This document shows positions 1,619-58,505 of a DNA stretch of 64,000 nucleotides, piece after piece (the first letter of the stretch is position 1; each line of letters opens with the position of its first letter). The translations under genes and the position numbers were made by a program. The notes below the pieces were generated by a model, which ran no database searches, had not been told where the DNA came from, and saw only the letters and a program-made list of their open reading frames with translations. This stretch comes from Octopus vulgaris (lineage: Eukaryota). The DNA lies in NCBI GenBank assembly GCA_951406725.2, contig OX597831.1:83514001-83578000 (forward strand), given 5' to 3'.

Positions 1619-1632
1619 TATATATATATAAT

Positions 1633-2284
1633 TATTTAACAATTAATTATCAGGTAGATAGCGTGAAAAGACTAAATTCCTTTTTAAATGTCTTGCTTTG
1701 GAAAAATTGCATTGGGTATGATTAGTAAAATTTTTTGGTAGAAATGACTAATGTCCCTCTTAGCGTGTGACATGTATGTGTAATAATGCCCTCTATATAT
1801 AAATTAATATGTTCAATAAGAAAGAATTATTTTCGAAATTTTTCTCCTATGAGGTTTTTCACGCTATCTATCTGATAATTTCTTGTTAAGATTCCTTATT
1901 AAGAAGTTATCCTTAATTGTTAAATAATTTTATTCCGAAAAAACTTTTCCTATCCGAAATGCAATTCGAAGAAGCCTGCCATTTACCGGATGTATTATAT
2001 GTAAACTTCCCCATGTGCGTCGTTGGGGTTGAACAGATAGCTGTTCGGCTTTGACGGTACAGGTTCGTTTATTTATGATGTGTTCAGAATCAGTCTTGCT
2101 GATGAGTACGGTCGAATCTGCGATAAGTACGAAATCACAGGTGATACAAGACTAAATTCCCTTTTTTAAATGTCTTGCTTTGGAAAAATTGCATTGGGTA
2201 TGATTAGTAAAATTTTTTGGTAGAAATGACTAATGTCCCTCTTAGCGTGTGGCATGTATGTGTAATAATGCCCTCTATATATAA

Positions 2285-2290
<6 letters not shown>
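1633..2290 (+). mobile_element. Retrozyme-like element: ~480 nt unit plus ~140 nt terminal redundancy and a short 5' inversion
   Basis: 1668-1810 is repeated at 2148-2290. 1633-1667 is the reverse complement of internal segments near 1855-1880 and 1914-1925. Contains a full hammerhead, sits in (TA)n, and has a homolog at 42217-42735. Confidence 0.75.
2092..2153 (+). ncRNA. Type I hammerhead ribozyme with intact core
   Basis: Stem I AGTCTTG/CAAGACT, core CTGATGA (2099-2105), stem II GTAC/GTAC, GAAA (2131-2134), stem III TCAC-ag-GTGA, NUH triplet AUA. Predicted cleavage after 2146. Confidence 0.85.
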
Positions 2291-2343
<53 letters not shown>

Positions 2344-3759: not shown

Positions 3760-3960
3760 TGACCTCGTGTGTACCATTGGCGACTTTTTTCCTCTGTCTT
3801 CTCTTCTCTGGATCTTTCCTTCTCCTATGTTTCCGACGAAGAGCTCCGCTCGAAACGTTAAACCCTCCTTCTTCCCTTCTTTCCTGAGCGTCCAATAATA
3901 CTTTATTTGTTCCACGTCCTTGCGTTGTTGTGTTTTTCTATTTTATTGTTTGGATTAACT
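3760..3960 (+). mobile_element. ~200 bp dispersed repeat with minimal hammerhead motif, copy 2
   Basis: Homolog of 1430-1618. GTTT-CCGACGA-a-GAGC-tcc-GCTC-GAAA-CGTT-AAAC at 3829-3863, with (TA)n on both sides. Confidence 0.7.
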
Positions 3961-42216: not shown

Positions 42217-42220
<4 letters not shown>

Positions 42221-42733
42221 TAAAAATAGGATAAAATCTTAATAAGAAATTATCAGGTAGTTAGCGTGAAAAACCTCATAAGAGAAAAAATCTGTAAATT
42301 TTTTCACTTAAAAATATTTATTTATATTATATAGAGGGCATTATTACACATAAATGCCACACGCTAGGAGGGACTTTTAAAGTCATAACTACCAAAAATA
42401 AACAAATCGTACCGAATGCAATTCTCGAAGCGAGTCATTTAAAAACAGAATTTAGTTCCAGATCACCTGTGATTTCAAAATTAACGTATTATCTATGTCT
42501 CTTGCTCTTTAGTGAAACGAATTCAAAATATATCATGAATGAACAAAACCAACATACCAGGCGGAACCAGACAGACAGCCGTCGCCTCCATCCTAGCACA
42601 TGAAAATGTTCACCCCTCATATATTTATGTAAATGGCGGGCTTTTTCGAATTGCATTTCGGTAAGAAACGTGCTTCTTCGGAACAAATTAAAAATAGGAT
42701 AAAATCTTAATAAGAAATTATCAGGTAGTTAGC

Positions 42734-42735
<2 letters not shown>
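42217..42735 (-). mobile_element. Second retrozyme-like copy: 468 nt unit plus 51 nt terminal redundancy, degenerate HHR
   Basis: 42217-42267 is repeated at 42685-42735. Homologous to 1633-2290. HHR at 42455-42518 (GTTTCA-CTAAAGA...GAAA-TCACAGGTGA-TC-TGGAAC), flanked by (TA)n. Confidence 0.75.
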
Positions 42736-55998: not shown

Positions 55999-56309
55999 TT
56001 TGTTTTCTTCTCACTTATTTGTGTCTCTCCTTACTAACCGTCAGCCATTTTGTATTTCTATTGTATGTCTTCATTTGTGCATGCTTATATCTCTATGTGC
56101 GTTTATGTTTATTTAGTGTGTGTGGGGGGGGATGCCTGTAATATTTGTATCTTCTGTTTATATAAGTTCATGTAATTTGTTTTTGTTGTTGTTTTTGTTT
56201 ATTCTTATTTGTTCATGTGTTTACATCCTCTTATTATTGTTATCATTACATATACTTGTATGTATGTATAACAACAATACTAGTAATAACAATAATAAAT
56301 CAAAAAACT

Positions 56310-58505
56310 ATAGCTAGGACCAAACTTAGAAAGATTTTAGGACTATACACTAAGAGACAGAGACAGAATAAGACAGAGGCCCAACAACTCGGGATTAAAC
56401 CTGCATGTGGCCTACATAAGCTCATTCAGCGCACGAGGAACGGAGAGGTGGTATGCCTTCCCACAGATAAGTCCGGCAGGATGTCAATAGGCAGCTTACC
56501 GAACTACATCCAGGCAATGCAACCTCATATTGCCAATACAAAAATAACAATTTTACAGGCGCATGAGGAGAGAGAAAAGGTCCTCAACGCCCACATGATG
56601 ATGTGGACAACTGTTTTGGGACCCTACAAACGTACAGCAAACAATTTCCAAGCCTGGAACAATGATATCCCGGCACTGTATGGACTTCGCAAGGACCATA
56701 AAGTAACCACTGACCCTATAGCAGGACCACCAACAAGACCAGTCTGTGGAGCGAATATGGCTTGCAACTACAGAATCTCCTACTTCCTCTCAATGATCAT
56801 ACGCCCTATAATCCGGATGTCACATGATGTTTGTGATAGCACAGAAGATCTCCTCAGCAGGATCAATGACTGTAACAACACTTGTGACCTGACAGCATGT
56901 ATGGTGGGTAGCATGGATGTGGTATCCCTATACCCATCGATCGACGTAGATTTTGCGGTGGAGAAGTGCGTGGAGATGATCAACGAGAGCCAGGTGGAGT
57001 TCCGTAATGTCAACACAGAGGAACTGGGCCTCCTACTTAGACTGACATGTGACAATGAATACCTAGATAAGCATGATCTTAGTAGTTTTTGCCCCAGTAG
57101 ATGTTTAAGAGGTAGACCGCCCACAATTACTTCTATGGCTAGGAAGACCCAAATAGAACGATGGCGCGGATGGACCAGAGCCATACGGAGCCCCGCAAAT
57201 GTCCATCAGGTAAAGAAAATGATCGCACATGCACTAGGAGCTAGTATAAGAGTTACTCTCAAAGGCCATACATTTAAGTTTAACAATAAAATATATGCCC
57301 AGGACGAGGGGGCAGCCATCGGTGTTAGTATCGCTGGTGATGTGGCCAACCTTTTCATGGTATGGTGGGACAGAAGGCTTAAAGAACGCCTAACACAGAA
57401 CTCCATACTCGTAAACATGTACTCTCTCTATGTTGATGATATCAACATAGTGGTAAAGGCACCCCCACAAGAGAGTACTGTTGATATAGTAATAGAAACT
57501 AATACTATGGAGAGCATCCAGCAAATAGTTAACTCCATCCACCAGAGTATAAAGGTCACAATAGACTACCCCACTAAACACCCCAACCATAGACTACCAG
57601 TACTAGACACTGAACTCTGGCTAGAAATTGTGAATAATAAAACCCAAACACTTCATTTGTACTATGCCAAACCTATGGCCTCAAAATACTTGATCCACCG
57701 GGACTCAGCCATTGCGGACAATGCCAAATTCAATATTTTGATGACAGACCTCGTCAGAATAATGAGAAATGTGTCACGCATGTGCGAGCCTACAGAGTTA
57801 AAGAGACACATACAATATTTCATTCACCGCATGCAGTTCTCAGGTTACAGCCATAAAGAAAGGATCAGAGTATACAAAGGAGCCATGAAGAAATTTGATA
57901 ATATATTATGTAATGATAGGAATGGGATTTGACCACTCTATAAGAACAAGTCATGGAACACTATAGAAAGGACAAAAAAGAAAATAGGGAAGGCCAACTC
58001 TTGGTATGATAGCCATAAATACCAGAGTGTCATGTTTGTTGACACCACCCCTGGAGGTGAACTGGCATACCGCTTTAGAAGGAACCTAGACAAACTTAAG
58101 CTAAGGATTAAGGTTGTTGAAAGGCCAGGCAACCCTATCAAATCTATAATCGATAGAACCTATCCTTTTAGTAGAACCCCCTGTACGGATAAGTACTGTA
58201 CTGTATGTAGATTTAGCCCACAAACAAACTGTAAAGCCAGAAATGTAGTCTATAGTATAAGATGTATAGAGGGACGATGCAGTAACAAGACAATGACATA
58301 CGTAGGGGAAACGGCAAGAAGCATAGCAGAGCGGGTAAATGACATATGAAAGAACTCAAGGAAGGTAAAAACTCATCGATTCTGTAACAACACGCCGAAC
58401 AGGAACACGGGGGATCAATCAACAACATAGAAATTAAAATATTGTCCACACATAGAACAGATGCAACAATCAGACAAATTACAGAAGCTACACACATAAT
58501 AGAAA
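56310..58505 (+). mobile_element. Penelope-like element, RT plus Cys-rich linker plus GIY-YIG (5'-truncated)
   Basis: PTDKSG, YGLRKDHK, RPV, SMDVVSLYPSID, QDEGAAIG, YVDD, LPVLD, then C..YC.VC and VVYSIRC...YVGET.RS..ER. In-frame TGA at 57930-57932 and later lesions. Confidence 0.92.

Follow-up and report, generated by a model that had tools for sequence, protein, structure and literature searches.

The window analyzed here, a 64,000-nucleotide stretch of the Octopus vulgaris genome (GCA_951406725.2, contig OX597831.1, positions 83,514,001 to 83,578,000 of the forward strand), contains near its left end a short repeat with a hammerhead ribozyme motif. The original prediction took this repeat for a retrozyme, copied for more than one unit length from a self-cleaved RNA, and took the element to begin at its own cleavage site. 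The locus raises the question of how such a unit is mobilized, and in particular whether the ends of its copies are set by ribozyme cleavage or by the enzyme that inserts them.

Organization of the Element

The element is a dispersed copy of a family of 480-nt, protein-free repeats with a conserved hammerhead motif. Its features are as follows, with unit positions numbered from the base after the predicted cut (+1), and with A and B denoting the two 3′ ends described further below.

1617–1630, no strand: left (TA)n target tract, located where an unrelated Penelope-type terminal-repeat relic (1424–1616) has its 3′ end
1631–1669, minus strand: inverted arm, unit positions ~+192 to +260, ending at site B and lacking the 34-nt hairpin body 1880–1913
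1668–2292, plus strand: forward arm of 1.3 units, starting +2 to +4 past the hammerhead cut and ending at site A
1668–1810, plus strand: first copy of the terminal redundancy, with a private A>C change near +13 common to both copies
1789–1801, plus strand: internal copy of site A, CCCTC then TATATATA, directly 3′ of a conserved predicted hairpin
1874–1926, plus strand: predicted hairpin (1874–1911) and internal copy of site B (end ~1926); the tail from A to B is ~120 nt
2087–2159, plus strand: type I hammerhead motif with core 2099–2105 and 2131–2134, predicted cut 2146/2147 and palindromic helix III
2148–2292, plus strand: second copy of the terminal redundancy, ending at site A
2291–2341, no strand: right (TA)n target tract
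42217–42735, minus strand: older copy of the same family, 70–80% identity, 1.1 units, ending at site B, in (TA)n

The predicted 480-nt unit with about 140 nt of redundancy is borne out by the direct repeat of ~143 nt, 1668–1810 and 2148–2292, whose copies are 97% identical at a period of 480. The unit is of the retrozyme type, being short, low in GC (34%) and protein-free; the longest stop-free frame inside the element spans 73 codons, in keeping with the claim that it contains no ORF. The TA tracts on both sides likewise agree with the (TA)n setting that had been proposed. The element holds one hammerhead only, and the hammerhead core of the older copy at 42217–42735 (minus strand) has decayed.

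The first reading had overlooked the segment to the left of the forward arm. Positions 1631–1669 are the reverse complement of 1856–1879 joined to 1914–1926 and form an inverted arm, so the cut site is not where the element starts. Because the AA at 1668–1669 is common to the inverted and forward arms, the start of the latter is given as 1668–1670 (+2 to +4).

Several other elements lie in the same window. Short relics with minimal hammerhead-like motifs, ending in GAAACGTT, are found at 1424–1616, 3760–3960, 24508 (minus strand), 24803 (plus strand) and 47408 (minus strand), and apparently represent terminal repeats of other Penelope-like families. A broken Penelope-like frame at 56166–58349 (plus strand) shows a weak reverse transcriptase (RT) match and, by eye, a GIY-YIG-like end, followed by a TA tract. 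The 70-nt inverted repeat 2484–2553/2641–2710, 93% complementary with its halves 87 nt apart, is probably a small DNA-transposon or head-to-head relic.

Conservation of the Hammerhead Motif

The motif contains the elements expected of a type I hammerhead, namely the CUGANGA and GAAA core segments, an NUH triplet, three helices and an open helix I. Helix I pairs AGTCTTG (2092–2098) with CAAGACT (2147–2153), with an extra distal helix at 2087–2090/2156–2159; the core is formed by CTGATGA (2099–2105) and GAAA (2131–2134), helix II is GTAC/GTAC, and helix III is ATCA-CAGG-TGAT, with AUA as the cleavage triplet and a predicted cut at 2146^2147. The Rfam search proposed along with the original prediction recovered no hammerhead in the window, either at the gathering threshold or at E values up to 10; hits to snoR09 (weak, E 0.086) and, on the TA tracts, to miRNAs were attributed to chance. 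Given that the Rfam models are silent, the motif itself and its covariation form the basis of the identification.

Covariation was assessed on 24 rows, one for each hammerhead variant; the selecting pattern fixed the core and helix III and left pairing in helices I and II free. Overall, 92.1% of cells are paired, and double changes occur in 13 of 23 pairs, a number reached in 13 of 500 shuffles. Compensatory changes affect all six pairs of helix I and three of the four pairs of helix II; the distal part of helix I is less well paired (77%). Counted as motifs rather than insertions across the 2.8-Gb genome (227 contigs), the pattern of the window subfamily has 70 exact matches compared to 0 for a control, the family-wide pattern has 2,184 compared to 2, and a 19-mer at +110 to +128 has 1,422. 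Core, helices, AUA triplet, pattern counts and covariation together uphold the intact type I hammerhead predicted at 2092–2153, and the hammerhead of the family is almost certainly under selection.

In monomer folding, the hammerhead fold scores −13.5 versus −17.0 for the lowest-energy fold. Helix III had been described as near-palindromic, which holds in all five common variants: it does not fold alone, and its pairing as a dimer is worth −10 to −16 kcal/mol, matching the double-hammerhead model (PMC4209133).

Two further loci carry hammerhead-like motifs with a similar helix III that the family profile does not match (L205:4814–4863 and L206:4755–4792, both minus strand); at L206, an upstream stretch is complementary to the motif. 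These are possibly further retrozyme families.

Copies of the Family in the Genome

The genome contains over a thousand fragments of the 480-base repeat, with a family unit of 460–500 nt. As the retrozyme prediction implied, the copies inspected are not attached to an RT/GIY-YIG frame: an RT frame joined to an arm was found in 0 of 240 family loci (duplicates included), and the tblastn matches to Penelope-like elements (PLEs) in 15 of these loci are in no case contiguous with an arm in sense. Two loci that had appeared to be ORF-bearing versions of the family were rejected. At L228 the frame belongs to a neighboring insertion, and at L271 to a secondary LINE insertion in an arm, a 5.3-kb LINE-like element (L271:2470–7754) with an open frame of 1,133 codons and a short duplication at its insertion site.

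Tandem copies with a hammerhead in each unit occur at the family level as dimers, one 4-mer and one 31-mer; in the window subfamily, the complete list of 70 matches includes at most two hammerheads in tandem. The 31-unit, 15-kb array belongs to a sister subfamily (G000:C1:64,639,650–64,655,250; L201, L202) and is itself bounded like an insertion, with an inverted arm ending at A, the forward array ending at B, and TA on both sides. Its 30 complete units differ by a mean of 0.58 substitutions (99.9% alike), and shared variants are nested and recur at an offset of 16 units. This nesting indicates that the array grew at least partly as DNA, or was mis-assembled, and rules it out as proof of rolling-circle reverse transcription.

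Four public runs, whose kind was guessed, each gave 27–51 family-like contigs, which carry no information on end, strand, level or circularity. In one run (X1, kind guessed), a 238-nt contig aligns to window positions 1901–2127 with 38 differences, largely T>C, and 32 of 76 changed places in the run are T>C, a pattern that resembles A-to-I hyper-editing of the antisense strand. Such editing marks are absent among the genomic copies (A>G 50, T>C 74, G>A 76).

Insertions End at Two Fixed 3′ Sites

Mapping of 200 loci, drawn from best matches, hammerhead patterns and 3′ patterns, yielded 158 unique insertions, of which 156 do not run into a locus edge. TA tracts flank 126 of the 156 on both sides, 29 on one side and 1 on neither; with (TA)n tracts as targets, target-site duplications, which are long in metazoan non-LTR retrozymes when present, cannot be delimited.

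Relative to the hammerhead strand, the 5′ ends of the arms are variable and the 3′ ends are fixed. All but 4 of 239 outer 3′ ends fall at one of two sites, 126 at A (~+128 to +144 from the cut, at an internal TATATA) and 109 at B (~+260 from the cut, about 110–130 nt past A). The distance from CCCTC to the TA tract is correspondingly bimodal (n = 230), with 119 values at 0–29 nt, 7 at 30–109 and 104 at 110–149.

By type, the 156 insertions comprise 85 head-to-head copies, 68 scored as single arms and 3 others, with a short inverted B arm present in at least 4 insertions scored as single, the window copy included. The 85 head-to-head insertions pair their ends as A+B in 78 cases, A+A in 2 and B+B in 1, with 4 having an unclassed end, so that 78 of 85 carry a one-sided tail of ~110–130 nt. 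This near-strict rule of one A and one B end is the Penelope footprint of an inverted arm plus a tail. Among the 74 strictly two-armed A+B insertions, 40 have the A arm contained within the B arm and 11 have the B arm contained within the A arm; 22 of these 51 nested cases have 5′ ends within 15 nt of each other. In the remaining 23, neither arm contains the other, which requires two primings; very likely, a third or more of all events involved two primings.

The 5′ ends of many arms lie at unit positions −85 to −92 (window ~2055–2062), which belong to the 3′ side of a long hairpin in the predicted fold. This is a possible RT stop or junction hot spot.

Arm Starts and the Predicted Cleavage Site

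To relate arm starts to the cut, as the original prediction had suggested doing, end statistics were taken from 117 insertions (182 arms) picked by 3′ patterns alone. Only 5 of the 182 arms start at 0 to +2 (L001, which is the window copy, L004, L081, L113 and L143), where simple arithmetic from the observed end rates gives a chance expectation of about 1–2. In the 25 positions on either side of the cut, ends are found in 22 of 107 arms at risk at +1 to +25 versus 4 of 85 at −24 to 0 (p 0.001, an excess that counts non-independent arms). For the window subfamily alone the figures are 7 of 49 versus 2 of 42 (p 0.17), and the excess is absent at the second crossing of the cut. Arm ends concentrate at short palindromes, near +8 to +20 and near +60 to +80, and most ends at +1 to +25 other than the five sit on the first of these. 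On these grounds a start at the cut site was rejected as a family rule; for the forward arm of the window copy, the claim stands only roughly.

The cut site is passed by 85 of the 104 arms that reach +20. Cleaved linear RNA is therefore a minority template at most, and the main template would be either circular or uncleaved RNA. What sets the terminal redundancy is the fixed 3′ site together with read-through, not the cut. The original description of a retrozyme-type family is supported, whereas the start at the cleavage site is incidental to most copies.

Circle or Multimer

Tandem repeats within an insertion diverge by 1.9% and opposite arms by 2.3%, compared to 4.4% between young insertions. 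Private variants are common to both tandem passes in 7 of 71 cases, one of them in the window copy, and to both arms in 16 of 114, for which gene conversion could be an alternative source. No arm junction recurs in another insertion (0 of 97). Circular folds are more stable than shuffled sequences in all 7 units folded, with z values from −2.6 to −9.6 against 15 shuffles per unit. For the non-hammerhead fold the covariation term is +0.76, which is not favorable, and double changes occur in 11 of 76 pairs among 7 sequences. Read-through, shared private variants, non-recurring junctions, the lack of long arrays in the window subfamily and the stable circular folds were counted in favor of a monomer template, and a circle is probably the main template. 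The 31-unit array could serve as a supply of uncleaved linear templates.

Penelope-Like Enzymes in the Same Genome

The genome holds 6,136 GIY-YIG candidates; a small sample of PLE families was compared with the retrozyme family. Open frames of 781 amino acids with RT and GIY-YIG matches exist in many copies. A homolog search returned 583 relatives, the few named ones coming from bivalve symbiont assemblies. The clade looks Neptune-like from a CxxC preceding the nuclease motif, an assignment that follows the description in PMC8557442 and not a tree. In L251:434–5665 and other copies, the open 781-aa RT/GIY-YIG frame is part of a Penelope-like element with an upstream frame of >300 codons and a 34-nt tail, whose terminal repeat contains a degenerate minimal hammerhead-like motif.

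The genome's own PLEs have TA tracts as targets and terminate either at an internal TATATA or ~34 nt beyond it. Of four head-to-head copies inspected, three have a short end on one side and a 30–40-nt tail on the other, and in the fourth the two ends are alike. Searched against PLE terminal regions, the family profile returned no real match. In the pairwise comparison with the repeat of the 781-aa element, p 0.005 was reached in only two of four subfamilies across 36 comparisons. This likeness of ends is weak and unreplicated, and the 781-aa element is a candidate partner. That an enzyme of the Penelope type mobilizes the family is highly probable; the prediction of such mobilization is strengthened by the A and B ends, the inverted arms and the one-sided tail.

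A Model for Mobilization and Its Alternatives

Based on these data, the favored reading, to which we assign a probability of roughly 0.6, is that the family is a retrozyme which a Penelope-like RT mobilizes in trans, with a circle as the likely template. Tandem transcripts would self-cleave, best as double hammerheads, and the cleaved monomer would be ligated into a circle. A Penelope-like RT/GIY-YIG protein would then nick both strands of a TA tract, with one nick priming at A, where the internal TATATA mimics the target, and the other priming at B. Each cDNA would extend for a variable length, and the 3′ ends would join by microhomology. For the window copy, an A-primed cDNA would have made 1.3 turns and stopped at the cut site, and a B-primed cDNA of ~70 nt would have skipped the hairpin. 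A more specific version is put forward tentatively, in which a dimeric Penelope RT is hijacked by the ribozyme-made circle; from the two nicked strands of a TA tract, its two active sites would prime at two points of one circle that are defined by structure, and would roll around it.

The same two-site priming could instead act on an uncleaved linear multimer transcribed from tandem arrays, with circles absent or a side product. The 31-unit array demonstrates that such arrays exist in a sister subfamily, helix III is weak as a monomer, and for the one PLE assayed in vitro, from an anole, hammerhead mutants were without effect on insertion and unprocessed RNA was the dominant substrate (PMC11167929). 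However, tandem hammerheads in the window subfamily number two at most, though collapsed or unplaced arrays could hide sources, compensatory changes have kept the hammerhead across subfamilies, and no junctions are shared among the 97 examined. We regard this alternative as unlikely, although it is the most probable of the four. A single primed cDNA that folds back and copies itself into the inverted arm, with the second fixed end arising from hairpin resolution, would account for the 51 nested insertions, including the 22 with nearly coincident 5′ ends; the palindromes on which ends cluster would suit it, and self-priming is discussed in PMC3846280. The 23 non-nested insertions (e.g., L059, L171 and L174) would need a further template switch, which makes fold-back copying improbable.

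Two explanations without a retrozyme fare worse. If the copies were 5′-truncated terminal repeats of an ordinary ORF-bearing Penelope-like element, their insertion anatomy, which is that of PLEs, would be expected, and the loci inspected are a few hundred out of over a thousand. Yet long arms run into more 480-nt units, up to 31, and never into an ORF, the few PLE matches (15 of 240 loci) are nowhere contiguous with an arm in sense, and the hammerhead is canonical rather than of the minimal PLE type described in PMC4209133; this origin is very improbable. Slightly less probable still is spread as a satellite at the DNA level, by unequal exchange or rolling-circle DNA, with the hammerhead incidental. 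The block-like shared variants within the 31-unit array are what such a process would leave, and array growth may still have occurred in this way. For the dispersed copies it is largely refuted by strand polarity, that is, by 3′ ends that are fixed and 5′ ends that vary with respect to the hammerhead strand, and is further opposed by the inverted arms, the hairpin-skipping deletion in the window copy and the covariation of the hammerhead.

Comparison with Known Systems

Judged from its genomic copies, the family is a conserved retrozyme-type family with the genomic characteristics of a metazoan non-LTR retrozyme (Cervera and de la Pena 2020, PMC7229834; Li et al., bioRxiv 10.64898/2026.07.22.740005). 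PLE mobilization of animal retrozymes has been a proposal from co-occurrence and terminal-repeat likeness (PMC7229834; bioRxiv 10.64898/2026.07.22.740005), and the preprint, which proposes a PLE origin as well as mobilization, covers 35 genomes, with no mollusc among the groups named in its accessible text. Here, the retrozyme insertions themselves carry a countable PLE footprint, and their anatomy is stronger evidence for Penelope-type mobilization than a start at the cut site.

No cephalopod retrozyme, inverted-arm or two-site analysis of a retrozyme, or ~120-nt tail was found in the openly available literature searched; subscription papers or repeat databases may already list the family as an unclassified or Penelope repeat. 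The word "inverted" occurs 0 times in the main text of PMC7229834, and inverted arms are not described in the accessible text of the preprint.

The origin of PLE inverted arms and the one-sided tail is called unresolved in PMC8557442. If the reading of a circle copied by a dimeric RT is true, hundreds of insertions record both the life cycle of a retrozyme and the origin of the Penelope inverted-arm-plus-tail structure, and the 120-nt tail makes the two cDNAs separately visible. A small, complete in vitro system for distinguishing a circular from a linear template and twin priming from fold-back is offered by a 480-nt RNA, a TA target and the open-frame PLE proteins that this genome encodes.

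The family shares with metazoan non-LTR retrozymes a canonical type I hammerhead, a short, low-GC, protein-free unit, an organization in monomers, dimers and arrays, a PLE-holding genome and a highly paired predicted circle. Its unit is 460–500 nt, versus the 150–450 bp quoted for those elements, and unlike them, as described in the sources cited above, most of its copies are dispersed, shorter than 2.3 units and set in (TA)n, and they show inverted arms and two fixed ends. Circles and cleavage have been demonstrated for coral and mussel retrozymes; for the Octopus family they are predicted.

Similarities extend to endonuclease-bearing (EN+) PLEs. The Penelope/Poseidon, Neptune and Naiad groups have inverted arms and one-sided tails of 30–40 nt (PMC8557442, PMC3846280), and share with the family 5′ truncation, partial tandems, an inverted 5′ arm, AT-rich or (TA)n targets and two internal initiation sites. 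For the anole PLE, cutting and extension affect both strands of the target, reverse transcription begins at two internal sites that bound the tail, a dimer is predicted, and cleavage is dispensable in vitro, with uncleaved RNA as the main substrate (PMC11167929). In contrast to these elements, the family has no ORF, a canonical rather than minimal hammerhead and a 480-nt period, and its tail of ~110–130 nt is 3–4 times longer than the 30–40 nt of the PLEs described. Non-autonomous Chlamys elements such as MRC1 (PMC8557442) resemble the family as probable PLE passengers with pLTR-like redundancy and head-to-tail copies. However, their 3′ ends resemble those of their autonomous partners and their clade is said to lack canonical hammerheads, whereas the hammerhead of the Octopus family is conserved.
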